From NCBI GenBank assembly GCA_964612735.1, contig CAZTEB010000005.1:4080-34225 (forward strand): 30,146 bases of DNA, given 5' to 3'. Position 1 is the stretch's first letter; each line of letters begins with the position of its first letter. The notes beneath the pieces were generated by a model. That model was not told where the DNA came from and made no database searches. It saw only the letters and a list, made by a program, of their open reading frames with translations. The position numbers and the translations under genes were made by a program. Positions 6,231-27,153 of the stretch are shown here, in pieces. The stretch comes from an uncultured Pseudomonadales bacterium. Lineage in GTDB: Bacteria > Patescibacteriota > Microgenomatia > UBA1400 > PJMF01.

Positions 6231-8432
6231 ATGAACATTTCTCTCATCATCACGGTGCTAAACGAAGCAGATTCGCTGGAGGCTTTGTTGGTGAGCGTTG
6301 AAGAACAGCGGCGAAGACCCGATGAAGTGGTGATCGTAGACGGTGGTTCTAGTGATGGGACTTGGGAGCAGTTACAAGCCTGGCAGCAAAAGTGGCAGCG
6401 GCAAAAAACTTCAAAAACGCTCTCAATTCAAGTCGCCCAACAGCACGGCAATCGTAGTGTGGGTCGTAATCACGCTATAGAGCTAGCTAGCTACGATTGG
6501 TTGGCAGTTACTGATGCCGGCTGCGTGTTAGATACTAACTGGCTGCACGAACTCGAGGCGACTGCCAATGCCAATCCAGAAGCTCAAGTGATCGCTGGTT
6601 ACTATCAGGGTGAGGCTGTCACATCTTTTCAACAAGCTGTAGTGCCGTATGCCTTAGTGATGCCAGATCGAGTCGATCCGGAGTCATTTTTGCCGGCTAC
6701 TCGTTCAATGATGCTCCATCGATTGGTGTGGGAGAAGTACGACAGTTTCGACGAGTCATTATCAGATAATGAAGATTATGCACTTGCTCGAGAGCTCAAG
6801 GCTGGTGGGGAAACGATAGTGTTTGCACGACAGGCTGTAGTTTGGTGGCGACCGCCGAGTGATCTACTTTCTTTCTTTTGGATGCTGCTGCGTTTTGCTC
6901 GTGGTGATGCTCAAGCAGGTCTATTTCGCCCCAAGGTCCTACTGCTTTTCTTGAGATATGTGATTGGCGTTGTAACAACTGGAGTTTTGTTTCTAGTAAA
7001 TGTCTGGCTAGCGCTGAGCTTTGTGATTAGTACTAGTAGCTTGTACGCAGGTTGGGCTGTCGTGAAAAATAAACGCTTCGTGCCAAATGGTTGGAGATGG
7101 TTGCCGACGCTGCAACTGGTAAGTGATGGGGCAGTGATGATCGGGACACTCTGGGGCTTGGTGAAACGACGAGCGGGACTTGTATTCATGGCTCTCTTTA
7201 TTCTCAGCTCGATACTCTACTTAGCAGGTGTGATGCGAGTTGGTACCGCTATCTGGGGTGATACCCATTACTACTACGCTTACACTCGGTCGTTGGTGAT
7301 GGATGGCGACATTGATTTTTACAATGAGTCACAGCATCCTGAGTTTGGCTTCCCCAATGGCCAAGTGATTATCGAACAGACCAGTAGAACCGAGAACGTC
7401 TTTTCCCCAGGCGCGCCACTGCTGTGGCTGCCTGGGTTCTTAGTGGGGCGAGCTTTAACCCAAGTGGCAAACGTCGCTGGCGCTACTCTACCAACCGATG
7501 GTTATTCACTACTGACTCAGGTGACTGTTGGTGTGAGTACTGTGTTGATGAGCGTAGCGGGCTTGTGGCTAGTGTATAGGTCACTGCTTACTCTTGGTAA
7601 ACGAAATGGTGATGTGCTTGCACAAAACTCTCAAGCAAGGTGGTTGACTGTCACTACGTTATTGGTAGCTACACCAGTTTTTTTCTACACGGCGCTCGAT
7701 CCTTTTAACTCGCACTCGGCGTCGTTACTGTTGTCATCACTGGCACTGTGGTTGAGCACTCGACTATTGGTCAGTACTACTCATCAGCGCTTGGCATTGT
7801 GGTTGTGTTTGGGGGTGGCGTTGGGATGGTTGGGATTAGTGCGCAATCAAGACATATTGTTGGTGTTGCCGATTGGGTTAGTAATACTGTTTAGAGCATT
7901 GCAGCAGCGATCGGCTTATGAGCTAAAGCAGTTAGTTTTGTTTAGTATCGGAGTTATCTCTATCTTCAGTATTCAGGTAGCTACTACCTACTATCTCTAC
8001 GGTCAGTTTGGGAGCCCCTATACCTTGCGTGGTCAAATGCTAAATTGGGGACAACCTGACATTATTCGTGTGTTGTTCTCGCAGGGAAATGGATTGTTGT
8101 ACTTTGCACCTGCGCTTCTACTTGCTCTGTATGGATTGGTAAAAACAGCACTTCAAAAGAATGAATCACTACTGCGAACGCTAGCTATGGCTGGCCTGTC
8201 ATACTTCTTGCTTGAGCTCTATGTGATCGCCAGCTGGGGACCAGAAATCGTAGGCGGCCCGTATGGTTCAAGGATGTTTATGGGTACACTGCCGTGGCTG
8301 GCGGTAGGATTATTCGCAACCTTAGCGAGCATATGGTCGAAAAAAGCATGGAGATTTTCCACGTTGTTATTGCTTGCTTTGGCAGCAAGTTGGAGCTGGT
8401 GGCAGACAGCTGTGATGCTGATGAGGTACTAA
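6231..8432 (+). CDS. GT2 glycosyltransferase fused to a multi-TM GT-C-like domain
   Basis: N-terminal ISLIITVLNE, IVDGGSSDGT, VTDAGC, NEDY; after about residue 315 GDTHYYYAYTRSLVMDGDIDFYNE and many hydrophobic segments, LVRNQD, YGSRMF. Confidence 0.8.
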   Translation: MNISLIITVLNEADSLEALLVSVEEQRRRPDEVVIVDGGSSDGTWEQLQAWQQKWQRQKTSKTLSIQVAQQHGNRSVGRNHAIELASYDWLAVTDAGCVLDTNWLHELEATANANPEAQVIAGYYQGEAVTSFQQAVVPYALVMPDRVDPESFLPATRSMMLHRLVWEKYDSFDESLSDNEDYALARELKAGGETIVFARQAVVWWRPPSDLLSFFWMLLRFARGDAQAGLFRPKVLLLFLRYVIGVVTTGVLFLVNVWLALSFVISTSSLYAGWAVVKNKRFVPNGWRWLPTLQLVSDGAVMIGTLWGLVKRRAGLVFMALFILSSILYLAGVMRVGTAIWGDTHYYYAYTRSLVMDGDIDFYNESQHPEFGFPNGQVIIEQTSRTENVFSPGAPLLWLPGFLVGRALTQVANVAGATLPTDGYSLLTQVTVGVSTVLMSVAGLWLVYRSLLTLGKRNGDVLAQNSQARWLTVTTLLVATPVFFYTALDPFNSHSASLLLSSLALWLSTRLLVSTTHQRLALWLCLGVALGWLGLVRNQDILLVLPIGLVILFRALQQRSAYELKQLVLFSIGVISIFSIQVATTYYLYGQFGSPYTLRGQMLNWGQPDIIRVLFSQGNGLLYFAPALLLALYGLVKTALQKNESLLRTLAMAGLSYFLLELYVIASWGPEIVGGPYGSRMFMGTLPWLAVGLFATLASIWSKKAWRFSTLLLLALAASWSWWQTAVMLMRY

Positions 8433-10015
8433 TGTCAACAGGTTTGTTTTTAGTTTTTCAGCGCTATGCTTCAAAAATAGCAGTGATCGGCTTTCTGCTC
8501 TTCACCTCACTTTTCTACTTTCAACAACTCAATTTCAACACCTCAGACCTTGGCCGACACATCACTAACGGCCGCGTCATCTTAGAGACAAAGCAGGTGC
8601 TCTCGACTAATTATTACTCTTACACACATCCTGATTTTCCTAGCGTTAATCATCACTGGTTGTTTGGCGTACTAGTGTATCTGATCCATCAGCTTGCTGG
8701 CTTCATAGGAATTACGGTATTTGCCGCAGTACTTGGTGTGACTACCATGGCTTTGTGCCTAGACTTGGCTCGCAGAAAAACAAACTGGAAGTATGCAGTA
8801 CTGGCTGGAGTAGTACTACTGCCGTTGATTACTACTAGGATTGAGCCGAGGCCGGAGTTAGTTAGTTTGCTCGGCGTTAGCTTATTTATATGGCTGCTAG
8901 ATCGCTATGCTAGCAAACACATTTCTTTCACACAGCTGACTACGGCCATAGTTGGTTTTCAGATTTTGTGGGTGAACACTCATCTCTTTTTTATCTTTGG
9001 TCCATTTGTAGTGGGAGCGTGGTGGTTGGAGACTTTTTTTACACACTGGTTAAGTGAGCGGCGTCAGTCATTAGTTCGAGCTTCTGTCTTGTTGGCAGTC
9101 GTTTCGGCAGCTTGTTGTATTCATCCTGCTGGCATCTGGGGAGCGCTGCAGCCACTTCGTATTTTTGAAAACTATGGTTATGAGATTCTTGAGAATCAAA
9201 GCCTGTGGTTTGTAATCCAGAGGCTAGGTCAGCCGGTGTATTGGTATGGGTTACTGTTGGTTGGCTTGAGTACTTTGCTACAGATCGGTACTACTAAGTA
9301 TAAGAACTGGAAAGGTGAAATCAGTGTGGTCGTCTATTTAGTCACTTTTGGAGTGATGACTTTGATGATCAATCGCGCGCTACCATTTTTCGGCGTGATA
9401 GTGTTGCCGATTTTTGCCGTGCACCTAAAGAGATTTTTTGATCGCTATTATCAACAACTACACGTAGTACTTCGATCAGACGTTGGAGCTGCAGTACTAG
9501 GCGTGCTTGGATTTGGTGGTGTTGCTCTTGCTGGTCTGAGTGGCATGTGGTGGCCTTTGGGTTCGAGGTTTGGTTTGGGCCTACTTCCTAGTTCAAGTGC
9601 TTCTGCGGACTTTTTCAAAGACCACAGCATTCAAGGTCTCATCTTTAACAACTACGATATAGGGGGATACCTGATTTATCATCTCTATCCTGACCAAAAG
9701 GTATTCGTAGATAATCGGCCCGAATCCTATCCAGCTGACTTTTTCAGTGATGAGTACATTGCAGCACAAGAAGACGAAGAACGATGGCAACAACTTTTGG
9801 AGCAGCATGATTTTAATGCTATTTACTTTTATCGTCACGATCTGACTCCGTGGGCTCAGCCATTTTTAATCAAGCGTCTTCATGATCCGCTGTGGGTGCC
9901 GGTGTTTGTAGATGCGTACAGTATTATTTTTGTGAAAGACGCCCAGCAAAACCAGCAGTTGATCAAAGAGTTTGAGTTACCCAGCGAGTTGTTTGGAGAA
10001 ACTAGGGTAGAATAG
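8432..10015 (+). CDS. Polytopic membrane protein, putative GT-C-fold glycosyltransferase
   Basis: ATG 8432 overlaps the upstream TAA (TAATG); SDLGRHITNGR, YSYT...NHHWLF, RPEL, WVNTH, C-terminal NNYDIGGYLIY...FVDNR. Confidence 0.7.
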   Translation: MSTGLFLVFQRYASKIAVIGFLLFTSLFYFQQLNFNTSDLGRHITNGRVILETKQVLSTNYYSYTHPDFPSVNHHWLFGVLVYLIHQLAGFIGITVFAAVLGVTTMALCLDLARRKTNWKYAVLAGVVLLPLITTRIEPRPELVSLLGVSLFIWLLDRYASKHISFTQLTTAIVGFQILWVNTHLFFIFGPFVVGAWWLETFFTHWLSERRQSLVRASVLLAVVSAACCIHPAGIWGALQPLRIFENYGYEILENQSLWFVIQRLGQPVYWYGLLLVGLSTLLQIGTTKYKNWKGEISVVVYLVTFGVMTLMINRALPFFGVIVLPIFAVHLKRFFDRYYQQLHVVLRSDVGAAVLGVLGFGGVALAGLSGMWWPLGSRFGLGLLPSSSASADFFKDHSIQGLIFNNYDIGGYLIYHLYPDQKVFVDNRPESYPADFFSDEYIAAQEDEERWQQLLEQHDFNAIYFYRHDLTPWAQPFLIKRLHDPLWVPVFVDAYSIIFVKDAQQNQQLIKEFELPSELFGETRVE

Positions 10016-10960: not shown

Positions 10961-11342
10961 AACTGATTCCCGCTACCACCGCAGTTAGCGCCGTTCCCCA
11001 AGCTACATCGATTACCACTATCTGCCACGGCCAGTCCTTCAAAGTAGCCCAGTTAGTCAGATCGTAGGTCATGTAGGTGAGGAAGCCAAAGAGTGCTCCG
11101 TTTATTAGAGCTCGCTGTGGTGAGGCCTCACGTAGTGCGGGCACTAGCGCAAAGAACAGAATCCCTACTATATACAGTGCGTAGAAAAGCAAGGCAGCTG
11201 GCCAAACTACAGTAGTTGCCAAGAGATGACCGAGATAGTTGTTATACAGTTTGCGGGCGATGAAGCCTAACCAAATTACGTCTATGCCAAAAAAGACCCC
11301 AGTGGTAATTACATATAAAAGCGCGTATTGAGTAAGTTGCAT
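10935..11342 (-). CDS. DUF2177 family membrane protein
   Basis: IDVIWLG, AALLFYALY, GALFGFLTYMTYDLTNWATLKDWP, DVAWG. Confidence 0.85.
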   Translation of the reverse strand: MQLTQYALLYVITTGVFFGIDVIWLGFIARKLYNNYLGHLLATTVVWPAALLFYALYIVGILFFALVPALREASPQRALINGALFGFLTYMTYDLTNWATLKDWPWQIVVIDVAWGTALTAVVAGISFMIASKVI

Positions 11343-11378
11343 ACCCCTAGTATACCTAGATTTGGTAGACTACCTCCA

Positions 11379-11927
11379 ATGCAAAAAGTATATTTTGTAA
11401 CAGGCAACGAAGGAAAGTTTAAAGAAGTTCAAGCGTTCTTGGGAGATGTGGTTGAGCGAGTCGAAGCTGATACCACCGAGGTTCAGTCTATCAGCGTCTC
11501 AGAAATCGCAGCCCTCAAAGCTAAAGAAGCCTATGCCCAGCTCCACAAGCCGGTCTTGGTAGAAGACACGGGATTGGCTATTACTGCTTGGAATGGTTTG
11601 CCGGGACCATTGATCAAGTGGTTTTTAAAGACAGTACACACGGATGGCTTGTGTCGGATGTTGAGTGAGTTTCAAGATCGCTCGGCCGTGGCGACTACGG
11701 TGTTTGGTTACTTTGATGGTGAAGAATTGATGACGTTTGTCGGTGAAGTGGCTGGTAGTATTGCGGATGCTCCTCGTGGTGACAATGGCTTTGGCTGGGA
11801 TACTGTTTTCATTCCCAAAGGTGGTGACAAGACCTTTGCGCAGATGACGATGGAAGAGAAAACGGCTGTCTCGATGCGGGGTCGGGCTTTGGAGAAGTTG
11901 AAGGTGTGGTTGGAGGAGCGAAGCTAG
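11379..11927 (+). CDS. rdgB: Ham1/RdgB non-canonical purine NTP pyrophosphatase (ITPase)
   Basis: FVTGNEGKFKE, VLVEDTGL, GLPGPLIKW, GFGWDTVF, EK...SMR; start re-assigned to ATG 11379. Confidence 0.9.
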   Translation: MQKVYFVTGNEGKFKEVQAFLGDVVERVEADTTEVQSISVSEIAALKAKEAYAQLHKPVLVEDTGLAITAWNGLPGPLIKWFLKTVHTDGLCRMLSEFQDRSAVATTVFGYFDGEELMTFVGEVAGSIADAPRGDNGFGWDTVFIPKGGDKTFAQMTMEEKTAVSMRGRALEKLKVWLEERS

Positions 11928-11938
11928 CAAGATCTTTG

Positions 11939-13168
11939 CTAGGCACCTTGAGTGTCAAATGAGTAGTGGGCGGTTTGGAATGCGCGCACGAGCTCGAGCA
12001 CTTCGGCTCTCACTGATGTTCCTTTAAAACTCTGATCAATGTACTCTGCTACTTTTTTAACTTCTGCCTCTTTCATCCCCCGCCGTGTAATTTCTTGCGT
12101 TCCCAATCTAACAAACATGCCACCTTCAAGTGGATTGTCAAAATTAACCGTAATATTGTTGTCGAACAGTTGATCATACAGCTGCTTGTAGTTGCCAACT
12201 TTATCAGTGAATAAATGAACTTGATGGTTTTCCGATAACCTTCCCGTATTTGCTTTTCTCACAGAATAGCCTAGTCTCTCCAGTTCTTCTCCCAGGGTAT
12301 TGGAGTTGGCAATTATTTGCCCAGCGTAGGCTTCACCGAACTCAGCCATTTCTAGAAGAGTGACAGCCAAGGCAATTACGTGATGAGCATGGGGGCTAGA
12401 ATACAGGCAACCATCAATAACCTTCATCGCCGCACTCCCAAGCTTGTCATCCTTGAATGCAATCATGCCTTTTTGAGGACCGGGAAGTGTCTTGTGAGTG
12501 TTTGCGCAGATGACATCAGCCCCTTCAGAGAACGGTGACTGAAATTCTTGACCAAGAATCAGACCCATGGTGTGGCTGGCGTCATAGATGATAATGGCTT
12601 CGTCACCAAGTGCTTGGCGTATTTCCATGAGGTTGTGTGGGTTAATATAATACGAAACGTCCATATAAAAAGCTTTTGCATTTGATTTTTTGAAATCAGT
12701 ACTGAGCCGCTCCACATCAAATGATAGTGAGTCAAAGTTATATGAGGCAAACACGTGCTTGCGACCAACCCTATCCAGTATGCCCTTGGTAGCAAAGTGT
12801 CCTCCATGATCATGATGCACCGTCATTACGGCATCACCTGGTTCTGTGGTGGACAGGATGGCACACATCATAGCGTGGACACCCGAAAGACAACTAAGAC
12901 TAACATGTGAGGCACCAAGAATTTTCTTGGTAGCTTCTTCAGCTGTAGTTACTAGTTCATGAATCCCAGGAAAACCTAGGGCTGTGAATGGACCTAAGTC
13001 AACTTTTTCGTCTGTACCTGGTCCGATAAAGTATCTATCTGCTAGACGAGAATCCATAAAAGAGCGAGCAGTGTCAAACATCAGGGGCTCGTTAGCCGTT
13101 AGATGAAGAAAGGTGTCATTTCTCTCTTCTTCTTTTTTAATGTTTGTAAGCAAGTTGGTGATATTCAT
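11939..13168 (-). CDS. SHMT-fold PLP enzyme resembling L-threonine transaldolases (ObaG/ObiH-like), not canonical GlyA
   Basis: LHLTANE, HGGHFA, YDASHTMGLILG, NTHKTLPGPQKG, NHQVH, RLGTQEITRRGMKE, YSFD; lacks GlyA-typical LIASEN, YAEGYP, GHLTHG and LRGPRGG. Confidence 0.8.
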   Translation of the reverse strand: MNITNLLTNIKKEEERNDTFLHLTANEPLMFDTARSFMDSRLADRYFIGPGTDEKVDLGPFTALGFPGIHELVTTAEEATKKILGASHVSLSCLSGVHAMMCAILSTTEPGDAVMTVHHDHGGHFATKGILDRVGRKHVFASYNFDSLSFDVERLSTDFKKSNAKAFYMDVSYYINPHNLMEIRQALGDEAIIIYDASHTMGLILGQEFQSPFSEGADVICANTHKTLPGPQKGMIAFKDDKLGSAAMKVIDGCLYSSPHAHHVIALAVTLLEMAEFGEAYAGQIIANSNTLGEELERLGYSVRKANTGRLSENHQVHLFTDKVGNYKQLYDQLFDNNITVNFDNPLEGGMFVRLGTQEITRRGMKEAEVKKVAEYIDQSFKGTSVRAEVLELVRAFQTAHYSFDTQGA

Positions 13169-13183
13169 GAGTCGAGTATACCA

Positions 13184-15016
13184 CTACCGCTTCAACGCTT
13201 TAGTGATATCCGCCTTGCGAAGTCGCAGGAACTCAGGAGTGACTTCAAGCATTTCATCTTCAGCAATGATCACCAAGAACTCTTCGAGCGATGGCTTCCA
13301 AGCAGGTGCCAGCACAATGGTGGTGTCAGCTGCTGCAGCTCGCATATTGGTAAGCTTCTTGCCCTTGGCTACATTGACCACCATGTCTTCGGAGCGAGTG
13401 TTGATACCTACTACTTGGCCGGCATAGATTTCCTCACCAGGATCGACTAGCATTTTGGCGCGCTGTTGGGCTTTGTCTAAGGCATAGGTAGTAGCTGTAC
13501 CAGTCTCGTGAGCGATGATGGCACCACCTCGTTGCTGTTGTGCATGATCTGAAAGTGGTCGGTACTCTAAGAACAAGGTATTGATGATGGCTGCACCTGA
13601 AGTAGCAGTCAGGAGCTCATGGCGGTAACCAATCAAGTTAGCTGTCGCCATCTCGTACTCAAAGCGGACGCCATCCGTAGTCGTTATCATGTTTTGCAGG
13701 TGGCCTTTGCGTTGAGCCATGCTGGTGGTGATAGTGCCGGTGTAGTCCTGAGGAACTTCTATGGTGACTGACTCCCAAGGCTCGTGCTGTTGGCCATCTA
13801 TTTCTTTGATTACCACTTCAGGTCGTGAGACCGAAAACTCATAGCCTTCGCGGCGCATGGTTTCTATCAGGATAGAAATGTGCAGCTCACCACGGCCGAC
13901 GATGGTGACGCTCTCACCAGATTCTGCAGGTTGCATTCGCAGGCCTACATTGGTTTCTAACTCTTTATTCAATCTGTCACGAAGTTGGCGTGAAGTGGAG
14001 TAAGTAGCGTCACGGCCAGCAAAGGGTGAAGAGTTCACAGAGAGCTTCATCTTCACAGTTGGTTCACTAATCGAAAGCGATGGCAGTGGAGCTGACTTTC
14101 CTAGTTCACAGATAGTCTGACCAATTTGAGGTTTAGCGAAGCCACTAATGGCGATGATGTCGCCGGCGCTGGCAGTCGCAACTGGTTGTCTCTCAAGGCC
14201 ATGGTGGGTGAAGAGATGCTCTACGTTGCCTTCAACAACTTTGGCGTCTGAGTCTGCGCTGACGAGTTGGACGCGCTGGCCTTTGGAAATAGTTCCTTGA
14301 AAAATACGACCGACGATGATCTTACCGATATGGGAATCAAAGTCGAGCGAATTTACCTGAAGCTGAAGCGGCTTACTAGCATCTCCAGTCGGAGCTGGGA
14401 CGGTTTTGATGATGTTCTCGAATAATGGTGCTAAGTCTGTGCTATCAGTGATATCCATGGAGTGATCGGGATTCTCAGCAACAGCTGTTCCTACGATGCC
14501 GTCGATGCCCCTGGCATACAGTATTGGGAAATCAAGCTGCGACTCGTCACTAGCTAGTTCTAAGAATAAGTCGCCAATTTCTTGCTCTACGGCGGCGAGT
14601 CGCTGATTTTTTCTGTCCACTTTGTTGATAACTACCAGCGGCTTGAGTCCAAGTTGAAGAGCCAGTCGTAGTACGAAGCGAGTTTGAGATAGCACGCCTT
14701 CGCTGGCATCAACCAGCAAGACACAGCCGTCTGCCATGTTCAGCACGCGCTCTACTTCACCAGAGAAGTCAGCGTGACCCGGGGTGTCTAAAATATTTAT
14801 CTTGTAGTCGTGCCAAAAGACGGCGGTGTTTTTTGACAAAATAGTCACGCCGCGCTCACGCTCTAAGTCATTGGAGTCGAGGATGGTGGTTTGCTCGAGT
14901 TCCTTTTGGTGAGCCGCAAAGGTTTGAGTCTGCTTGAGCATAGCATCCACCAAGGTAGTCTTACCGTGGTCGACGTGGGCGATGATGGCGATGTTGCGGA
15001 TGTTTGACTGCTGCAC
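13184..15016 (-). CDS. typA: Translational GTPase TypA/BipA
   Basis: [70 protein letters not shown]; GTG start. Confidence 0.97.
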
Positions 15017-17935: not shown

Positions 17936-18508
17936 CTAGTTACTAGTATTAAGCCGAAGTTCTTCAGGCAAGAATTGATCAATTTCTTCATCTGACCAAG
18001 TAAATTCTTCACCGCTAATACTTCCTCTTTTATTAAGCCTCCTCTGAGCCTCTTGGTATTCACTGGGCCCTGTTTGTGGAGATAAATCACTTATTACTTG
18101 GTACTCCCGTTGTAATGAGTCTCTCTTTTCGATAATAGCTTTTTTGGGAATAGCTTGGTTCATTATGTCTGTTATCAATGATCTATATTTGTCTCTTAAA
18201 CCCATATATTTTAGTGCAGAGTTTTTATGCAGCACCATTTTATCCTCATAGCTAAAAGAAAGTTGTATGATTAAGAAGATAATCTCTGCCACACTTAGCC
18301 CCGCTCCTAAGTATGATAACCAAATTTTGTCTGGTTGAGCTGTTTGCACTAAAAGTAAAACTAAAACAACTGAAACTAGTGCTATGTTAACAATTTTAAC
18401 GTAGTATGAATTTTGTGTTTGCTTTTCAGATGCTACTTCATGAACTTTGTGAGTGAATACTGTGTTCGCAAATGTCTGCCTAACTATGGCTAAATTTTGT
18501 AAATCCAT
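17936..18508 (-). CDS. SLATT (SMODS/SLOG-associating 2TM) effector, SLATT_4-like
   Basis: VRQTFANTVFTHKVHE, two TM helices, HKNSALKYMGLRDKY, SPQT, FTWSDEEIDQFLPEELR; ATG 18508 with AAGG upstream, 4 nt after the CD-NTase stop. Confidence 0.85.
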   Translation of the reverse strand: MDLQNLAIVRQTFANTVFTHKVHEVASEKQTQNSYYVKIVNIALVSVVLVLLLVQTAQPDKIWLSYLGAGLSVAEIIFLIIQLSFSYEDKMVLHKNSALKYMGLRDKYRSLITDIMNQAIPKKAIIEKRDSLQREYQVISDLSPQTGPSEYQEAQRRLNKRGSISGEEFTWSDEEIDQFLPEELRLNTSN

Positions 18509-18512
18509 ATCG

Positions 18513-19391
18513 TTAACCTTTAAATTTTGAACCATATATTTCCTGCCACTTACTGTTAGCTGAATATGGCCTGTCTTTTTCTTCATATTCTATAGCCTCA
18601 AGTGAAATGTTGTAACACCTTAATGCTTTATAATCGAAGCTTCCTTTTCTCCAAACGTACTGACTGCTTCCTGGTGCTAACCAATAATTCTGATCTTCAT
18701 TTTGATTTTTAAGAAACTTAAAAAAATCTCTTGTCATGTAATCATAGTAAACATATGATTTATCGTTGTTTTCCCAGTCTAATAAAAAATTATGTGCCAA
18801 AGTATCGATCAGTAAGCCACCAATAGGTACGTTCCATTTATCTTTCCAGCATCTCACCATCCTACATAAATTTTTTAAATTACCACTGTATTTATTATTT
18901 GCTTCTCTAATAGCTTCGATTTCTGGTTTGGGGTCTGTTTTTTTCCAGCTACCTCCATCATGTGTATCGGGATAAGCATACCTGCCGCTTTGATAGAGAA
19001 AACCAGGCACTATTTCAAAACTAACCCCATCTTCAAAGTTAATTTGAACAACTTGTCCATCTCCTTTAATGTGGCTTGTAGAGTAAGTTTTTTTTAGTGA
19101 ATCTCTGACAGCTTGTAAAAGAGCTGATTGTCCATTTCCCAAATGATTGTCGTACTTTTCATATTCTCCCCAGGGCAACTGCATAAGTATGTCGATGTCG
19201 CTGATGTGAATATCGGTATCTCTACCATATGAGCCCACGTAAAGGCTATGACTTGTTTTAGAATCACTATTCCAAAAATCAATATTAAGCTGTTTTGTAA
19301 TTCTGCCGTACCTATAAGAAATATCTTTAACTACTTCCGAATCAATCCTTATGTCATTACAGAATTGTTTAAATTTTGTTGATACACTCAT
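18513..19391 (-). CDS. SMODS/cGAS-DncV-like nucleotidyltransferase (CD-NTase), CBASS cyclase
   Basis: YVGSYGRDTDIHISDIDILMQLP (GS...DxD), GDGQVVQINF, FEIVPGF, YPDT...WKKTDP, LCRMVRCWK, GLLIDTL. Confidence 0.92.
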   Translation of the reverse strand: MSVSTKFKQFCNDIRIDSEVVKDISYRYGRITKQLNIDFWNSDSKTSHSLYVGSYGRDTDIHISDIDILMQLPWGEYEKYDNHLGNGQSALLQAVRDSLKKTYSTSHIKGDGQVVQINFEDGVSFEIVPGFLYQSGRYAYPDTHDGGSWKKTDPKPEIEAIREANNKYSGNLKNLCRMVRCWKDKWNVPIGGLLIDTLAHNFLLDWENNDKSYVYYDYMTRDFFKFLKNQNEDQNYWLAPGSSQYVWRKGSFDYKALRCYNISLEAIEYEEKDRPYSANSKWQEIYGSKFKG

Positions 19392-19428
19392 ACCACTCCT
19401 GAATCATAAAGTCACACAATATAGGGTT

Positions 19429-19962
19429 TTAACTCCCTGACTTTTTTATTTGCTTCAAATACTTAATATTTTCATCCACAAGGTAAACAGTGTGGTATTT
19501 AGCTCCTGCTTTTGTTTTCAAATCTCTTGCCTTAAGTTTACCTTTTCTAACTAATTTTCGTGCTGTTGATGGGTGTAAACCATACTCATCCTTTAACTTC
19601 CAGCTAGAGATAGTATTTTTCCAGTGACAAGCAGATGCTGGTATTACTCCCTGTTCGATATTCCATTGGCAGTCCATACACCTCTGCCCATTTTCATCCC
19701 ACCATGTCTCTGTGCCTGAAATACTCTTGTGACAAATTAGGCAGTTGTAGACACCCTCATGTTCACCGAGGTGAAAGCCTTTGGGGTGATCTTTGAGTTT
19801 CTTTTTTCTCCGAAAATCAATCTGAGCCTGTTCCATTAAAAGTTTGACTAAGCCCACTAAGTTTTCTCCTTGCTCACGCGCTTCTGCATCCGTGAGGACC
19901 TTGCCGTATTCTTTTTTGGCTATTTCTTTGAACTCTTGTATTGCTTCATCTGGTAGAGACAT
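19429..19962 (-). CDS. Hypothetical protein: helical N-terminus, CxxC...CxxC Zn finger, C-terminal excisionase/MerR-like HTH
   Basis: CLIC-17 aa-CMDC; LKDEYGLHPSTARKLVRKGKLKA; ATG overlaps the DUF2188 stop (TAATG). Confidence 0.65.
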   Translation of the reverse strand: MSLPDEAIQEFKEIAKKEYGKVLTDAEAREQGENLVGLVKLLMEQAQIDFRRKKKLKDHPKGFHLGEHEGVYNCLICHKSISGTETWWDENGQRCMDCQWNIEQGVIPASACHWKNTISSWKLKDEYGLHPSTARKLVRKGKLKARDLKTKAGAKYHTVYLVDENIKYLKQIKKSGS

Positions 19963-20201
19963 TAGTGCTTCCTATCTCTTGGTGGGTAGGGATCGTTACC
20001 TGGTTTAACAGTGTCGCTGTCTCGTATTGCACCATCTCTACCGTGGATTCTGACTTCACCACCGCCGGAATTACCTGAGTAAGTTTTTGCTTGCAGTTCA
20101 GCCTCCCTTTGAGTTGAGTGAATGCTACTAGCTTTGTTTGCACCTGCTCTACGAGCGTTCCAAGTGCCATCTTTATTTGGGGTTACGTGGTAGTTTGCCA
20201 T
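19962..20201 (-). CDS. DUF2188 family protein
   Basis: YHVTPNKDGTW, TQREA, EVRIHGRDGAIRDSDT, DPYPPR; AAAGGA RBS before ATG 20201. Confidence 0.85.
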   Translation of the reverse strand: MANYHVTPNKDGTWNARRAGANKASSIHSTQREAELQAKTYSGNSGGGEVRIHGRDGAIRDSDTVKPGNDPYPPRDRKH

Positions 20202-20219
20202 GATGTTCCTTTTGTAATG

Positions 20220-20272
20220 TTTGCTAACTGTAAAGTAGCTTAACATATAATTTAGACTTTGCAAATAGTAAA
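20220..20272. promoter_or_regulatory. Two candidate repressor operators in the divergent promoter region
   Basis: TTTGCTAACTGTAAA (20220-20234) and TTTGCAAATAGTAAA (20258-20272): 12/15 identical, each a near-palindrome TTTGC-N5-GTAAA; TATAAT lies between them at 20246-20251. Confidence 0.6.
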
Positions 20273-20277
20273 CTCAT

Positions 20278-20634
20278 ATGACACAATATAAACATATGAG
20301 CAATGATACAACTTACTCTAGTATTAGCCAATTTATCAAAGATAAGCGTGAGCAAATTGGTATGACTCAAGACGAATTGGCTACAAAGGTTGGAGTTAAA
20401 GCTGCAACAATAAGTCTCTATGAATCAGGCGACAGGAATCCTGATTTAGATAGACTAAAAAAAATTGCTGAAGCATTTGAGATTCCAGTTGCTACACTAC
20501 TAGACATTGAGGTTCCGAAAGAAAATTTGGACATAGCTTTAAGATCTGAGAAACTTAATGCGAAGCAGATTGATGACGTGAAAAGGTACATTCAGCTATT
20601 GAAATATGAACGGCAAACACAAAAGGGTAACTAG
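20278..20634 (+). CDS. XRE/HTH_3 transcriptional repressor (ImmR/CapH-like)
   Basis: IKDKREQIGMTQDELATKVGVKAATISLYESGDRNPDLDRLKKIAEAF. Confidence 0.9.
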   Translation: MTQYKHMSNDTTYSSISQFIKDKREQIGMTQDELATKVGVKAATISLYESGDRNPDLDRLKKIAEAFEIPVATLLDIEVPKENLDIALRSEKLNAKQIDDVKRYIQLLKYERQTQKGN

Positions 20635-21100
20635 AAACCAAATTAGAGCTAAGGTCACAAGGTTGCTTGATGAATGTGGCTTATCATCTCCACCTGTTAA
20701 AATTTCTCACATCATCAAACATTTAGATATCTTTGTTGATAAGGGCTTAACAGATTTTTTGGAGTCAAACAAGATTTCTGCTTTTATCGACCTTGAAGAC
20801 AAAATCATTGAATACAATGATCGGCACCCAACTGTAAGAAAGAGATTCTCAATAGCTCACGAAGTTGGCCATCTTGTTTTAGGTCATTCAGTAAAAAGTG
20901 ACATTTTTAGTTATAGCTCAAGAGATCCTGTGGAAGTTGAAGCTAATATTTTTGCAGCTGAGTTGCTAATGCCTTTTAAGTGGCTGAAGGAAGATTTGAA
21001 AGGTTATGGTGTCAAAATTGATGAACTTGCTTATAAATATTGGGTCAGCAAGGAAGCAATGGGTTGGAGAATTTCGAATAGTGATTCTTTATTAGGTTAA
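20606..21100 (+). CDS. ImmA/IrrE family Zn metallopeptidase (CapP/ImmA-like antirepressor)
   Basis: RKRFSIAHEVGHLVLGH (HExxH), EVEANIFAAELLMP. Confidence 0.9.
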   Translation: MNGKHKRVTRNQIRAKVTRLLDECGLSSPPVKISHIIKHLDIFVDKGLTDFLESNKISAFIDLEDKIIEYNDRHPTVRKRFSIAHEVGHLVLGHSVKSDIFSYSSRDPVEVEANIFAAELLMPFKWLKEDLKGYGVKIDELAYKYWVSKEAMGWRISNSDSLLG

Positions 21101-21132
21101 AAGCATTACAAATATCTGATTTGTGATTGATA

Positions 21133-21175
21133 TTGACAAACCCACAATACATATTCTAATATACGAATATGTATT
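21133..21175 (+). promoter_or_regulatory. Promoter and palindromic operator of the copper operon
   Basis: TTGACA(21133)-18 nt-TAATAT(21157), ATG 6 nt later; perfect inverted repeat AATACATATTC-N8-GAATATGTATT at 21146-21175. Confidence 0.75.
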
Positions 21176-21648
21176 CACAGATATTCAAACTACATGCTGA
21201 CCTACTAAAGTCACTTGCACATCCTCGCCGATTAGAGATTATCCACTTACTTCGTAGTCAAGAATTACCTGTTTCTGATATTCATACTATGCTTGATTTG
21301 CCTCAAGCAAATATCAGCCAACATTTGATGGTTCTGCGAGATGCAGGAGTTGTTGTTACTCGCCGTGATGGTAAACAAGTTTTTTATAAGTTGAGCGATA
21401 AGAACATTATCAAAGCCTCCGACTTGCTTCGTAAAGTATTGATTGAGCAACACAAAGATACAGAATTAGCTGATGAGTTCACTCTCAAAATGCAGGAGTT
21501 AGTGCCGTTAGTTCAAGATCCTGTATGTCATATGAGAGTTTCGCCCAAAACCGCTGGCTTCCACCTAGTACATAAAAGACAAGACTACTACTTCTGTGCC
21601 AGTGGATGCTTAACAAAATTCAAAAAGGAGCCTGCCAAGTATGTCTAA
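21169..21648 (+). CDS. ArsR/SmtB regulator fused to a C-terminal YHS/TRASH domain
   Basis: LAHPRRLEII, QANISQHLMVLRDAG, RRDGKQVFY; DPVCHM...YYFCASGCLTKF. Confidence 0.88.
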   Translation: MYSQIFKLHADLLKSLAHPRRLEIIHLLRSQELPVSDIHTMLDLPQANISQHLMVLRDAGVVVTRRDGKQVFYKLSDKNIIKASDLLRKVLIEQHKDTELADEFTLKMQELVPLVQDPVCHMRVSPKTAGFHLVHKRQDYYFCASGCLTKFKKEPAKYV

Positions 21649-23863
21649 AAGCCAATCAATTTCATTTCACGTCTCAGGCATGCACTGTGCTAGCTGTGCC
21701 AGCAATATCCAGCGTAAGCTTAGAAAAACCGATGGCATTGCAGAAGCAACAGTCAACTATGCCAATGAGCAAGCGACTGTTAATTTTGATGAGTCAAAGG
21801 TAAAGAAAAATGATATTGCTAAAGCTGTGTCTGATGTTGGATATATGGCTCACATTGATGTTGATGCCGATGCTGATATCGCTGAAAAAAATAGAACCGC
21901 TGAAATTGCTGACCTGAAACAAAAGTTAGTTGTAAGTGGAATCTTGTCAGGTATATTGATGGCGAGCATGATTCCTGGGCTACCAATGTGGCTTCATAAT
22001 CCTTGGCTACTTTGGCTTCTTGCCACTCCTGTTCAGTTTTGGGCTGGAAAACGTTTTTATCAAGGTGCTTGGTCAGGATTAAAAAATTTCTCAGCAAATA
22101 TGGATACCCTAGTAGCTATGGGAACTTCTGCTGCCTATTTTTTCTCAGCTTTTGTTGTTCTCTTTCAAGACTTGCTGACCAGCCAAGGAGTCGCAACGCA
22201 TGTGTATTTTGAGGCATCAGCAGCAATTATTACCTTCATTTTATTAGGAAAGTTTTTAGAAATTCGTGCTAAGGCAAAAACGTCATCTGCTATCAAGGAA
22301 CTGCTTGGGTTACAGGCTACATCTGCTCGGGTGAAAAAAGATGGACAGTGGGTTGAGGTTCCTTTGGAAGAGGTGAAAGTCGGCGATGTCCTCTTGGTTA
22401 AACCTGGTGAAAAAGTTCCTGTCGATGGGAAAGTAATTGAAGGTGAGTCGTCTATAGATGAGTCTATGGTCACTGGTGAAAGCTTGCCAATAACTAAAGA
22501 AAATGGTGACAGTGTCATCGGTTCTACTATTAACCAGTCAGGCTCAATTCAAGTTGAAGCTACCAAAGTGGGTAGTGATACTATGCTTGCCACTATCATC
22601 AAACTTGTTCAACAAGCCCAAGGTTCAAGACCTCCAATCCAAGCATTAGTAGATACTATTGCTTCTTATTTCGTTCCTGCAGTGATTATGCTCTCACTTA
22701 TTACCTTTGCTACTTGGTGGTTTTTTGGACCAGAACCAAAATTACTGACGTCTTTGGTTAGCATGATAAATGTATTGATTATTGCATGCCCCTGTGCTCT
22801 AGGATTAGCTACGCCAACCTCACTTATGGTTGGTATTGGTAGAGGTGCTCAGTCAGGCATCTTGATTAAAGATGCTCAGGCACTAGAAATTGCTGGAAAA
22901 GTCAAAGCGATTGCTTTCGATAAAACAGGTACGCTCACAAACGGGAAACCAGAAGTACAACAAAGTGAGTATGTAGATGGTTTTAGCAAAAAAGATGTTG
23001 ATGCTGCAGTCTTAGCTGTTGAGTCACTTTCACACCATCCTTTAGCTCAAGCGTTAGTTTCCTTTGTTTCTACAAATAAGCAAAAGGTAATGGGTGCAAC
23101 CCAATTTAAGGACCATGCTGGTAAAGGTGTTTCTGCTACTGTTGGTAAAGACACAGTATTAATTGGCACGCTCAGTTTTCTAAACTCACAGAAAATTGCT
23201 ATTGACCCATCTCTAGAATCCACAGCGTCTGGTTGGCAAAAACAGGCTCAGTCAGTTGCACATGTAGCAATAAACAGTACACACGCAGCTGTCTATGGTA
23301 TTGCAGATGGCGTTAAAGAGTCTTCAAAATCAGTTGTCTCTACCTTGCAAAAAATGAGTATCACCCCTGTCATGGTTACAGGAGATAATAAACAAACTGC
23401 TGAGGCTATTGCGAAGCAGCTAGGCATCAAAGAAGTTCGCTCAGAGGTGTTGCCTGCTGATAAAGAGCAGTTAATTCATGAGCTTAGAAAAAACCATGGT
23501 GTTGTGGCAATGGTTGGTGATGGCATTAATGATGCTCCAGCTCTAGCTGCAGCTGATGTCAGTATTGCCATGGGTGGAGGTACTGATGTAGCGATTGAGT
23601 CAGCGGGAGTAACTCTGCTGAGAAGTGACATAGGGTTAGTGCCTACCGCTCTAGATTTGTCTAAAAAGACTATGACTAATATCAAGCAAAATCTGTTTTG
23701 GGCATTTGCTTACAATGTAGTGCTTATTCCTGTTGCTATGGGTGTTTTATATCCGTTTATTGGCATCATTTTAAGTCCAATCATGGCTGGTGCTGCAATG
23801 GCTTTCTCCAGTGTCAGTGTTGTTACTAACGCTCTCAGATTAAGGTCAGCAAAATTATCATAA
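21641..23863 (+). CDS. copA: Cu(I)-translocating P1B-1 ATPase
   Basis: GMHCASC, TGES, CPCALGLATP, DKTGT, SHHP, GDGINDAP, YN, MAFSS. Confidence 0.95.
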   Translation: MSKSQSISFHVSGMHCASCASNIQRKLRKTDGIAEATVNYANEQATVNFDESKVKKNDIAKAVSDVGYMAHIDVDADADIAEKNRTAEIADLKQKLVVSGILSGILMASMIPGLPMWLHNPWLLWLLATPVQFWAGKRFYQGAWSGLKNFSANMDTLVAMGTSAAYFFSAFVVLFQDLLTSQGVATHVYFEASAAIITFILLGKFLEIRAKAKTSSAIKELLGLQATSARVKKDGQWVEVPLEEVKVGDVLLVKPGEKVPVDGKVIEGESSIDESMVTGESLPITKENGDSVIGSTINQSGSIQVEATKVGSDTMLATIIKLVQQAQGSRPPIQALVDTIASYFVPAVIMLSLITFATWWFFGPEPKLLTSLVSMINVLIIACPCALGLATPTSLMVGIGRGAQSGILIKDAQALEIAGKVKAIAFDKTGTLTNGKPEVQQSEYVDGFSKKDVDAAVLAVESLSHHPLAQALVSFVSTNKQKVMGATQFKDHAGKGVSATVGKDTVLIGTLSFLNSQKIAIDPSLESTASGWQKQAQSVAHVAINSTHAAVYGIADGVKESSKSVVSTLQKMSITPVMVTGDNKQTAEAIAKQLGIKEVRSEVLPADKEQLIHELRKNHGVVAMVGDGINDAPALAAADVSIAMGGGTDVAIESAGVTLLRSDIGLVPTALDLSKKTMTNIKQNLFWAFAYNVVLIPVAMGVLYPFIGIILSPIMAGAAMAFSSVSVVTNALRLRSAKLS

Positions 23864-23875
23864 GGAATACATACT

Positions 23876-24991
23876 ATGAATCTTTTTGTCATTTTTCTCA
23901 CGGGTTTAACTACAGGCGGTTTATCCTGTCTTGCAATGCAGGGAGGGCTACTTGCTAGTGTGATAGCAAACCAAAAAGACCAGGAACATGATGAGGTTAT
24001 AGGTGATAAAGAAGCTAAAAAGAAAAAAAGAAAGCAGAAATACCTACAGTCACTACAAAAAAACAAATTTAGCTTAGATTCATTTGATCAGCTTGATTGG
24101 TTGCCTGTGACTATGTTCTTGGTTGCTAAGTTGGTTTCGCATATAATGCTCGGCTTTTTGCTTGGTTTACTAGGTTCTGCAATAACACTCAGTTTAGGAG
24201 TTAGACTAGCATTCCAAACATTTACTGCTCTATTTATGTTTGCAACGGCCATGAACCTTTTAGACGTGCACCCAATCTTTAGATTTGTCGTGTTTCAACC
24301 ACCTAAGTTCATTCAAAGAATGGTTAGAAATTCAAGCAAGAGTAAGGCTCTATTTGCTCCAGCAGTTCTTGGTTTTATGACTATTTTCATTCCCTGTGGA
24401 GTTACACAAGCTATGGAAGTATTAGCTATAAACTCAGGCAATCCTGTTTATGGGGCTTTAATTATGTTTTCCTTTGTACTAGGAACTACTCCATTGTTTG
24501 CTGCACTAGGTGTGGCTACAGCCAAACTGAGTGAAGGCTGGTATAGCAAATTTACTAAGTTTGCAGCCTATGCTTTGGTGGCAATGGCAATCTATAGCTT
24601 TAATGGCGTGCTAATTGTGATGAATGCACCAATTACAGTCAACAAGCTAGTAAGTCCAATTACCTATTTCTTTTCAGATGAGCGTTTTGAGAGGTCATCT
24701 GCATCTTCTGCAACGGTAGTAAACGGCATGCAACAAGTTGCTATTGGTGTTTTTAATCAAGGATACTCGCCGAACTATGTACAAGTACAAGCTGGTGTAC
24801 CCGTTCAGCTAACACTGCAGAGTAACGAAACATACTCATGTGCATTGGCATTTGTCATGAGAGAGTTTGGGATTAACACTTTCTTAGAAGCAACTGATAC
24901 CCAAACCTTTACATTTACTCCAACAAAACCAGGTAAATACACCTACACCTGTTCTATGGGTATGTATACAGGAGTGATGGAAGTTATTTAG
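23876..24991 (+). CDS. DsbD_2/TauE-like membrane protein with C-terminal cupredoxin-like domain
   Basis: GGLSCLAMQGG, FIPCGVTQA, FVLGTTP; C-terminal GYSPN...SCA...YTCSMGMY. Confidence 0.8.
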   Translation: MNLFVIFLTGLTTGGLSCLAMQGGLLASVIANQKDQEHDEVIGDKEAKKKKRKQKYLQSLQKNKFSLDSFDQLDWLPVTMFLVAKLVSHIMLGFLLGLLGSAITLSLGVRLAFQTFTALFMFATAMNLLDVHPIFRFVVFQPPKFIQRMVRNSSKSKALFAPAVLGFMTIFIPCGVTQAMEVLAINSGNPVYGALIMFSFVLGTTPLFAALGVATAKLSEGWYSKFTKFAAYALVAMAIYSFNGVLIVMNAPITVNKLVSPITYFFSDERFERSSASSATVVNGMQQVAIGVFNQGYSPNYVQVQAGVPVQLTLQSNETYSCALAFVMREFGINTFLEATDTQTFTFTPTKPGKYTYTCSMGMYTGVMEVI

Positions 24992-25004
24992 AAAGGAACA
25001 ATCT

Positions 25005-25250
25005 ATGCTCAACGTTTTCAAACAGAAACCAAAAGGAGAAACAGCCATATTCAAAATTGATGGTATGCACTGTACGAGCTGTAGTATGAATATTGACGGA
25101 GAGTTGGAGGATACCGAAGGCGTTATCTCTGCATCTACATCATATGCAAAAGCAGCAACGACAGTTGAGTTTGATGAGACTAAGGTTTCTAGAGAAAAAT
25201 TGAGGTCAATTATTGAAAATCTAGACTATACAGTAAAGGAGTTATCATGA
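25005..25250 (+). CDS. copZ: CopZ-like heavy-metal-associated chaperone
   Basis: IDGMHCTSC, GVISASTSY; AAAGGA RBS. Confidence 0.85.
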   Translation: MLNVFKQKPKGETAIFKIDGMHCTSCSMNIDGELEDTEGVISASTSYAKAATTVEFDETKVSREKLRSIIENLDYTVKELS

Positions 25251-25696
25251 AAAAATTGAGTTTAGTAGGTATCTTATTCGTATCAGCAGTTGTGCTTTCT
25301 GCGTGTACGGGGGCAAGTAATCAAGACCAACAGAATGGTAGTGAAGCACAGCCTACAACTCCACCTGTGACTGAGTCAGCAAACCAAGACTCAGCTAATT
25401 TAGTTGAATCAGCTCAAGAATATGACATTGTCATGGACAACCATTCTTTTTCTGAGACTAACCTCGTTGTGAAGGCTGGTGAGGAAGTTGTGATTAATTT
25501 AACTAATGAAGAAGGCTACCATGATCTTGTTATCGATGAGCTAGATGTTCACAGTGAACATCTTAAGGTAGGTGAAAATGAAGTCCTTACCTTTACTGTT
25601 AACCCAGAGCATATTGGCCAAACTTATGAATTTTACTGTAGTGTTGGCAGCCATCGCGAACAAGGCATGGTTGGGACAATCCAAATTATTGAATGA
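25247..25696 (+). CDS. Cupredoxin (type 1 Cu) lipoprotein
   Basis: Lipobox LSAC; GYHDL, FYCSVGSHREQGM (His, Cys, His, Met ligands); ATGA overlap. Confidence 0.85.
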   Translation: MKKLSLVGILFVSAVVLSACTGASNQDQQNGSEAQPTTPPVTESANQDSANLVESAQEYDIVMDNHSFSETNLVVKAGEEVVINLTNEEGYHDLVIDELDVHSEHLKVGENEVLTFTVNPEHIGQTYEFYCSVGSHREQGMVGTIQIIE

Positions 25697-27153
25697 TCTC
25701 AAAACATACTATTCAGCACTATGTTCCACTGATGATTCTCGCATCTTTCATACTGGGATTTGTAGTAGTAATCACCAAACCATCTTTGTCTTTACCTAAT
25801 CTTACTGAATCGATAACAAACAATCAGATGAAGCCGCAGTTAAAACAAAGTTTTGCTTCTTACTCAGAAGAAATTGAAGAATCTGGTGAAGAAGTTGTTT
25901 TTGATTTAGTGGCAGATGAGTCCACTATTAGTTTATTTGAAGGAGTTGAGACACAAGTTTGGTCGTACAATGGTCAAGTTCCTGGACCAGAGATAAGAGT
26001 GAAATTAGGTCAAAGAGTTACGGTTAACTTTATAAACAATCTTCCGCAACCTACTACTATCCATTGGCATGGGGTACGAGTACCAAATGAAATGGATGGT
26101 GTGCCAGACATCACTCAGGACCCAATACAACCAGGTGATTCATTTACGTACTCATTTGTACCGAAAGATGCAGGAACATTCTGGTTTCATCCTCATGTTA
26201 GAGGAGCAGAGCAAGTGGAAAAGGGTTTATATGGAACTTTGATTGTTGAAGACCCTAGTGAGCCTCAGTTTGATTCAGACACAGTGTTTGTGGTTGATGA
26301 TTGGCGATTGCAACAGAATGGCCAAATAGACCCACGCTTCGTTACAAACCATGATTTAGCTCATGATGGTAGGTGGGGCAATGCTATTACGGTCAATGGT
26401 TCAACAAACAAGCAGGCTTCTTTTTCAGCAGGTGCGAGTAACAGACTTAGGTTTGTTAATACTTCAAATGGTAGAGTGTATCGTCTGGATTTTGGTGGGT
26501 TAGCTAATAATGCTCAAGTAATTGCTGTAGATGGTATGAAGGTGGGTGAGGTTTTTCCAGCACAGGGTTTTGAACTTGCCCCAGGCAATAGAGTTGATGT
26601 TGTTTTACAGATTCCAGATTCCATGGCTCAATCATCATTTACTGTATATGATACTTTTACCCGAAATAGAAATAGTTTATTCAATATAACTATAGGTGAT
26701 TTAACGACCACAACTTTCAGTGGTGATTTGCCTGTTGATAGCTCGTTTCCTGATTGGTCAGAGGCTAATAAACTCAAACCTAATGCTGAATATGTTCTAA
26801 ATGCACGCAGAACTTCTGGCATGGGGATGATGGGTATAGAGTGGACCATCAATGGACAGGCCTATCCGAATGTAAATCCAATCACGCTGAAACACAACGA
26901 AATTCAGAAGATTCGTTTTACAAATAAATCTGCTCGGTTGCACCCCATGCATTTGCACGGTCAGTTCTTCCAAGTTATTGCCAGAAATGGGCAACCAGTT
27001 GATGAACCCTACTGGCGTGATACAGTGCTTTTACACCCGAGAGAAACTGTAGATATTGTATTGCTTCCTTTGGATAAAGGAACATGGGCAAATCATTGTC
27101 ACATTTTAGAGCATGCAGAAGCGGGAATGATGACAGTTGTTGAAGTCAAATAG
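25693..27153 (+). CDS. Multicopper oxidase (three-domain laccase/CueO-like)
   Basis: IHWHG, WFHPH, HPMHLHG, HCHILEHAEAGMM. Confidence 0.93.
   Translation: MISKHTIQHYVPLMILASFILGFVVVITKPSLSLPNLTESITNNQMKPQLKQSFASYSEEIEESGEEVVFDLVADESTISLFEGVETQVWSYNGQVPGPEIRVKLGQRVTVNFINNLPQPTTIHWHGVRVPNEMDGVPDITQDPIQPGDSFTYSFVPKDAGTFWFHPHVRGAEQVEKGLYGTLIVEDPSEPQFDSDTVFVVDDWRLQQNGQIDPRFVTNHDLAHDGRWGNAITVNGSTNKQASFSAGASNRLRFVNTSNGRVYRLDFGGLANNAQVIAVDGMKVGEVFPAQGFELAPGNRVDVVLQIPDSMAQSSFTVYDTFTRNRNSLFNITIGDLTTTTFSGDLPVDSSFPDWSEANKLKPNAEYVLNARRTSGMGMMGIEWTINGQAYPNVNPITLKHNEIQKIRFTNKSARLHPMHLHGQFFQVIARNGQPVDEPYWRDTVLLHPRETVDIVLLPLDKGTWANHCHILEHAEAGMMTVVEVK

Follow-up and report, generated by a model that had tools for sequence, protein, structure and literature searches.

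A threonine-transaldolase-like enzyme of the SHMT fold, predicted to act without folate, from a rare accessory gene family of Patescibacteria

The gene at 11939-13168 (-) of the window, which is the whole stretch of 30,146 nucleotides analysed here, probably codes for a PLP enzyme that works without folate and belongs to the L-threonine-transaldolase (TTA)-like branch of the serine hydroxymethyltransferase (SHMT) fold, and not for a second GlyA, its reaction being assigned from its family. By every sequence and structure criterion applied, the product is a TTA-like enzyme with a predicted activity, and the family around it is a subfamily of TTA-like enzymes without prior characterisation. The likeliest function, by analogy with characterised members of the branch, would be threonine-dependent retro-aldol/transaldol chemistry without folate on some aldehyde. 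The gene belongs to a rare accessory family in Patescibacteria and is no oddity of one genome.

To our knowledge, nearly all known threonine transaldolases come from the antibiotic pathways of actinomycetes and pseudomonads; as biocatalysts they are in demand for making beta-hydroxy amino acids. A well-conserved, compact (409 aa), single-domain clade in the ultra-small Patescibacteria extends the TTA family to organisms of minimal metabolism. The carriers, judged by this genome, do not make threonine, which raises the question of what role a costly, threonine-consuming C-C bond former has in them. Literature searches returned no paper on a Patescibacteria TTA clade or threonine aldolase. Database names of these genes are routinely 'serine hydroxymethyltransferase' or 'DegT/DnrJ aminotransferase', and metabolic reconstructions could therefore miscount one-carbon metabolism.

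Table 1. Positions, in window coordinates, of the candidate gene, its functional segments and its immediate neighbours.
Feature	Position	Strand	Basis	Remarks
SHMT-fold PLP enzyme gene, threonine-transaldolase-like branch	11939-13168	(-)	ORF, PF00464, TIGR04506, AlphaFold2 model, trees	409 aa
Codon of K226, PLP Schiff-base lysine	12491-12493	(-)	alignment columns	E. coli K229, ObiH K234; within NTHKTLPGPQKG
Loop 1, residues 46-65	12974-13033	(-)	alignment	ObiH Tyr55-Pro71 mobile loop; site of the GlyA YAEGYPGKRYYGG folate/substrate motif
Loop 2, residues 340-354	12107-12151	(-)	alignment	ObiH Glu355-His363; ends at carboxylate-binding R354
TGgTATACT extended -10-like motif	13175-13183	(-)	sequence reading	6 nt before the ATG, right after the typA stop
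typA/bipA	13184-15016	(-)		upstream of the candidate, same strand; stop at 13186-13184
rdgB/HAM1	11328-11927			convergent with the candidate, 11 nt from its 3' end

The candidate ORF is intact, and its ends in the ORF list agree exactly with the interval given above. Seven motifs had been listed for it in the sequence-only reading, and all are there: LTANE (residues 23-27), GGHFA (122-126), YDASHTMGLILG (195-206), NTHKTLPGPQKG (223-234), HQVH (315-318), TRRGMKE (361-367) and YSFD (402-405). A residue-by-residue alignment makes all seven visible in ObiH as well. The Pfam SHMT profile PF00464 matches the candidate over its full length (~96 bits, E=2.4e-27), the NCBIfam FTase profile TIGR04506 scores 261 bits (E=2.5e-77) and the SHMT profile NF000586 scores 194.5 bits; the last two scores lie under their curated cut-offs (650 and 335 bits, respectively). 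The TIGR04506 match is limited to positions 3-411 of the 609-position model, and the candidate is single-domain. With a score below the cut-off and no C-terminal aldolase II-like domain, the candidate does not have FTase equivalog status. Among solved structures searched by sequence, ObiH (7k34; 160.5 bits, E=6.6e-46) and the archaeal M. jannaschii SHMT (4bhd; 159.3 bits) tie, and every bacterial SHMT structure scores at most 93 bits. The E-values of the PF00464, ObiH and TIGR04506 matches indicate that the motif set is not a product of chance. The top match in a plasmid tblastn search is FTase (196 bits), with GlyA at about 100-110 bits, and an Atlas search gave only unnamed SHMT-domain clusters, mostly from Actinomycetota. 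Identity to characterised TTAs is only about 30-32%. HQV, GMKE and YSFD are present in the archaeal M. jannaschii SHMT too, so that these three motifs alone exclude bacterial GlyA only, not an archaeal-type SHMT.

The candidate is distinct from the housekeeping GlyA. Its genome, which measures 895 kb in 72 contigs, is 95% complete and, judged by its relatives, falls in Patescibacteria, carries a separate, canonical glyA on another contig, whose product scores 439.6 bits against PF00464 compared with 95.5 bits for the candidate, and folD and thyA are present in the same genome. The contig with this glyA (C20) is only 3.2 kb long (3233 bp). That it might be mis-binned was considered and is answered by the other carriers of the family: in 5 of 5, a paralogue scoring 92-117 bits accompanies a canonical GlyA at 465-502 bits, and in three of them the two genes share a contig. 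The separate glyA here and the pair of genes in all five other carriers thus set the candidate apart from GlyA. Identity to E. coli GlyA is 46-57% for canonical CPR GlyAs and 24-26% for the candidate family; the candidate itself is 24-28% identical to GlyA.

Residues were compared in an alignment of 162 sequences anchored by E. coli GlyA, Streptomyces cattleya FTase and archaeal-type SHMT representatives; clades received their labels indirectly, by searching the PDB with representative sequences. All PLP and retro-aldol residues are kept in the candidate (Y46, S95-G96, H124, D196, H199, H225, K226 and R354). H124, D196 and K226 correspond to H131, D204 and K234 of ObiH and are invariant in 70 family members. 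Y46, R354 and the pair H315-Q316 correspond to ObiH Tyr55 and Arg366, which bind PLP and carboxylate, and to the His324-Gln325 network (PMC8072733); the HQ pair is found in archaeal-type SHMTs too and does not discriminate alone. GlyA (E. coli b2551 and the genome's own copy) and M. jannaschii SHMT (4BHD/4UQV) share with the candidate fold-type I, the PLP lysine motif and the His/Asp/Arg set, whereas the candidate lacks their folate residues and differs from them in loop lengths.

At the folate-specific positions, E. coli E57 is replaced by I48, Y64/Y65 by T62/A63, L121 by H119, R235 by Q232 and N347 by D344, and the GlyA YAEGYPGKRYYGG segment is missing, in line with the earlier statement that GlyA signatures are absent. 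The E57 column holds M, F, I or L across the candidate family and L in FTase; in archaeal-type SHMT representatives, E57 and N347 are for the most part retained. Derived states common to the candidate and FTase are N26, a hydrophobic residue 48, M100, F125, T127, N223, Q232 and K233. Only the candidate family has H119, F343 and D344; H318 is found in its nearest clade as well. Judged from the aligned residues, the predicted enzyme retains the full equipment for PLP-dependent C-alpha-C-beta cleavage but no longer has that for one-carbon transfer to folate.

Two loops differ in length from those of true SHMTs. Both are folate-binding regions in SHMTs and shape aldehyde specificity in TTAs (PMC10495429, PMC8072733). 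Counted between its anchors, loop 1 has 18 residues in the candidate and 18-19 in the family; FTase has 21, and SHMTs of bacteria and archaea alike have 11. For loop 2 the corresponding lengths are 13 in the candidate, 13-15 in the family, 13 in FTase and 19-22 in SHMTs. The net difference from true SHMTs is a loop 1 that is longer by 7-8 residues and a loop 2 that is shorter by about 6, as in FTase. Both loops align with those of ObiH with almost no length difference, although ObiH mobile-loop residues W68/F70 are F61/L64 in the candidate, and ObiH E107 is M100.

Two trees were built, a FastTree of 162 rows and an IQ-TREE (LG+C20) of 71 rows to which S. clavuligerus OrfA was added; ObiH, LipK and M. 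jannaschii SHMT are absent from both. In each, the candidate family (support 99) and S. cattleya FTase share a clade (support 100), FTase being the closest to the candidate among the anchors placed. The IQ-TREE puts OrfA in a wider clade of 52 rows (support 99) around the candidate family and FTase. Archaeal-type SHMTs are basal and, like bacterial SHMTs, outside the TTA-like clade in both trees; canonical GlyA is set apart in both by a long branch with full support, which measures 0.89 (support 100) in the FastTree. The phylogeny thus bears out the proposed transaldolase branch as far as FTase and OrfA represent it. An AlphaFold2 model computed from a 70-sequence alignment has the SHMT fold (pLDDT 96, pTM 0.93), and a Foldseek search with this model ranks ObiH first (TMq 0.89), followed by M. 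jannaschii SHMT (0.85-0.87) and bacterial SHMTs (0.80-0.84). This ranking of a predicted structure is consistent with the trees but not decisive, the TM-score margins being small. Trees, residues, loop lengths and the top Foldseek match to ObiH all agree with the earlier placement in the transaldolase branch of the SHMT fold.

These data also bear on the idea that the gene encodes a genuine archaeal-type SHMT, acting on folate or another pterin as a redundant second GlyA. The near tie of ObiH and M. jannaschii SHMT in sequence score and fold, and the HQV, GMKE and YSFD motifs common to the latter and the candidate, speak for it; yet the equivalents of E57, Y64/Y65 and N347 are lost, although archaeal-type representatives mostly keep two of these, the loop lengths resemble neither type of SHMT, both trees leave archaeal-type SHMTs outside the clade with support of 99-100, and canonical GlyA, FolD and ThyA are already in the genome. 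We regard it as very improbable.

The characterised relatives differ from the candidate mainly in context. FTase of the fluorometabolite pathway has an N-terminal SHMT-like domain that is 32% identical over 98% of the candidate and, like the candidate, has the long loop 1, the short loop 2 and the common derived residues; unlike the single-domain candidate, it continues into a C-terminal class II aldolase-like domain, and the candidate has no pathway context. ObiH/ObaG of Pseudomonas fluorescens, the best structural match at 30-31% identity, is encoded in the obafluorin biosynthetic cluster beside aldehyde-forming steps, and the candidate is not. OrfA of the S. clavuligerus clavam paralogue cluster stands further off, with 31% identity across 81% of the candidate; it falls outside true SHMTs together with the candidate, and its cluster includes a ThDP enzyme, Rid, an aminotransferase and a dehydratase. 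OrfA and the active KaTTA have been assigned to one sequence cluster (Jones et al., 2023; PMC10495429). Thr-specific transaldolase activity has been measured in several divergent clusters, and some of the enzymes, such as BuTTA and PbTTA, have no biosynthetic-cluster context, so that such a cluster is typical of TTAs but not obligatory (PMC10495429). NoTTA and DbTTA, which are TTA-like, gave no product (Jones et al., PMC10495429), and clade membership is thus no guarantee of activity.

Modelled on the characterised enzymes, the predicted reaction would start with L-threonine forming an external aldimine with the PLP anchored at K226. D196 would contact the pyridine nitrogen, H124 would provide stacking, and Y46 and R354 would bind phosphate and carboxylate. 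Retro-aldol cleavage would then release acetaldehyde and leave a PLP-glycyl quinonoid, which might react with a second aldehyde in the former folate pocket to give a beta-hydroxy-alpha-amino acid. This pocket would have been rebuilt by the longer loop 1, the shorter loop 2 and the residues H119, H318, F343 and D344. The presence of H119 and D344 suggests that the acceptor may be polar.

Sequence does not tell capture of the quinonoid by an aldehyde, as in a transaldolase, from its protonation, as in an aldolase. The enzyme might accordingly be a folate-independent aldolase that splits L-threonine or another beta-hydroxy amino acid into glycine and an aldehyde, or synthesises threonine in reverse, with a salvage role in an auxotroph. 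Such an enzyme would keep the same retro-aldol residues, and SHMTs without the Glu57 equivalent retain folate-independent cleavage of beta-hydroxy amino acids. The genome, at 95% completeness, yielded no classical threonine aldolase (PF01212), and no ThrC, an absence that this completeness leaves unproven; lacking ThrC, the cell must import threonine. Nor was a Zn- or Fe-type ADH for acetaldehyde removal found, with the same reservation. These gaps, to which the lack of a conserved aldehyde-supplying partner may be added, keep the aldolase a live competitor. Three points weigh against it: the enzymes with which the candidate nests were shown to accept Thr rather than Gly as donor and to retain the glycyl quinonoid, a salvage function predicts a wider and more vertical spread than 3 of 301 genomes, and glycine is already supplied by GlyA. 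On balance we consider the aldolase unlikely, and transaldol chemistry is preferred.

Gene neighbourhoods were surveyed at loci from 20 species-representative genomes with 8-kb flanks. At either threshold, E<1e-8 or E<1e-3, each neighbour family is confined to at most 3 of 21 loci, and a Pfam tally of flanking genes found no family in more than 2 of 77. The earlier statement that no biosynthetic cluster is visible is upheld by the wider sample: neither a cluster nor an aldehyde-forming partner occurs near the candidate in the window or is conserved around the 20 orthologues. Tight partners vary by locus and include GNAT, D-2-hydroxyacid dehydrogenase, GT2, aminotransferase, SAH hydrolase, ThDP enzyme with alanine racemase, VOC with methyltransferase, cupin, Ldh_2 and an Asn-synthase fusion. 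The candidate family thus seems to be plugged into differing small-molecule gene sets, genome by genome. The description of the gene as a stand-alone copy holds in that it has no conserved partner, and requires amendment in that it is a member of a rare Patescibacteria accessory family instead of a one-genome curiosity.

At one locus, in Parcubacteria RAAC4_OD1_1 (L052:6621-10484), three genes follow one another at spacings of 4-13 nt (a ThDP enzyme, the TTA-like gene, an alanine racemase), and a homologue of this ThDP enzyme lies four genes upstream at a second locus (L038). The arrangement in RAAC4_OD1_1 resembles the logic of obafluorin synthesis, where a decarboxylase makes the aldehyde for the TTA. 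The ThDP enzyme of these two loci, a possible aldehyde supplier, has no homologue in the candidate's genome. Fused relatives comprise a GFO/IDH/MocA oxidoreductase with a TTA-like domain (P0124; Solirubrobacterales, 46% identity), an ATP-grasp L-amino-acid ligase fused to such a domain (P0163) and a B12-radical-SAM domain fused to one (P0208), besides FTase-like proteins with an aldolase II domain. The first three fusions may hint at partners that form the acceptor or use the product.

Such partners and fusions could point to another PLP reaction, with a non-threonine donor, a ketone or sugar/nucleoside-aldehyde acceptor, or an alpha-alkylserine-type aldol, in the decoration of surface glycans or small molecules. 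The linked GT2, GNAT, methyltransferase, aminotransferase, racemase, ThDP enzyme and 2-hydroxyacid dehydrogenases, the three fusion types and the family-specific, polar H119 and D344 lining the former folate pocket would suit it, but the partners recur in at most 3 of 21 loci, none is near the gene in the window, and all characterised members of the clade use L-Thr, which makes this quite an unlikely reading. Within the preferred threonine-transaldolase reading, a more specific proposal is a stand-alone, laterally shared TTA of primary or salvage metabolism, in which imported threonine would serve as glycyl donor to a widespread metabolic aldehyde, for instance formaldehyde, glycolaldehyde or glyoxylate, and yield serine, 4-hydroxythreonine or beta-hydroxyaspartate without folate; alternatively, a beta-hydroxy amino acid might decorate the cell surface. 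We offer this proposal as speculative and consider it unlikely.

Orthologues share 52-74% identity with the candidate. In a protein collection, over 120 clusters match at 62-74% identity, with Woesebacteria, Pacebacteria, Saccharimonadales and 'Patescibacteria group' as named sources; the cluster names carry almost no taxonomy or function. True orthologues occur in 3 of 301 genomes sampled across the phylum, a tally that counts one unpublished genome (G154) among those without an orthologue. Within the order of the candidate's genome, 2 of 61 genomes carry one, and the 4 others from its family carry none. Two orthologues (L005 in G234 and L082 in G356) were flagged for one in-frame TAA, yet tblastn recovers both full-length in a single piece.

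The similarity of the candidate to its orthologues does not follow that of TypA. By TypA, G305 is by far the nearest of five carriers (68% versus 44-50%), whereas the G305 copy of the candidate is 66% identical and the copies in G301, G302 and G304 are 70-72% identical. This incongruence in similarity rank fits lateral exchange within the phylum, and the family seems to be a rare accessory gene that moves between Patescibacteria lineages. GlyA identity to the other carriers is 63-66%, about equal for G301/G302/G304 and G305, and unlike the TypA ranking. Synteny of the typA region is not conserved in 10 relatives, and the insertion site is thus not definable.

The product of the convergent neighbour is an ordinary RdgB/HAM1 protein (TIGR00042, 163.8 bits; cut-off 145.35), and neither rdgB nor typA is adjacent to an orthologue in any of 23 other loci. 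The earlier suggestion that a variant ITPase next to the gene may point to nucleotide-related chemistry is therefore abandoned, the adjacency being unique to this genome. The annotated TTG start of rdgB creates a 15-nt overlap (11328-11342) with a divergent DUF2177 gene; the real start is probably an internal Met at residue 18, since the Ham1 domain starts only at residue 21. Farther from the candidate, the window encodes the DUF2177 protein, an EamA transporter and a Ser/Thr kinase.

The typA stop and the candidate ATG lie just 15 nt apart (TAG-tgg-TATACT-cgactc-ATG). The promoter of its own that had been proposed for the gene finds one element there, the extended -10-like motif, which is possibly the promoter of a leaderless mRNA if read at the level of the motif. 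The same 15 nt contain no -35 element and no SD on reading the sequence, and a scan for -35/-10 consensus sequences called no promoter between the typA stop and the ATG. The gene may instead be co-transcribed with typA.

Elsewhere in the window, a 573-aa ORF at 8294-10015 (+) is multi-pass membrane-like and has no Pfam match at E<0.01. The stretch at 18000-26000 has a G+C content of 0.365-0.417, compared with 0.44-0.48 elsewhere, with GC skew reversed at 18-20 kb, and has the look of an acquired island. This low-G+C stretch does not include the candidate gene, and the composition around the gene is normal.
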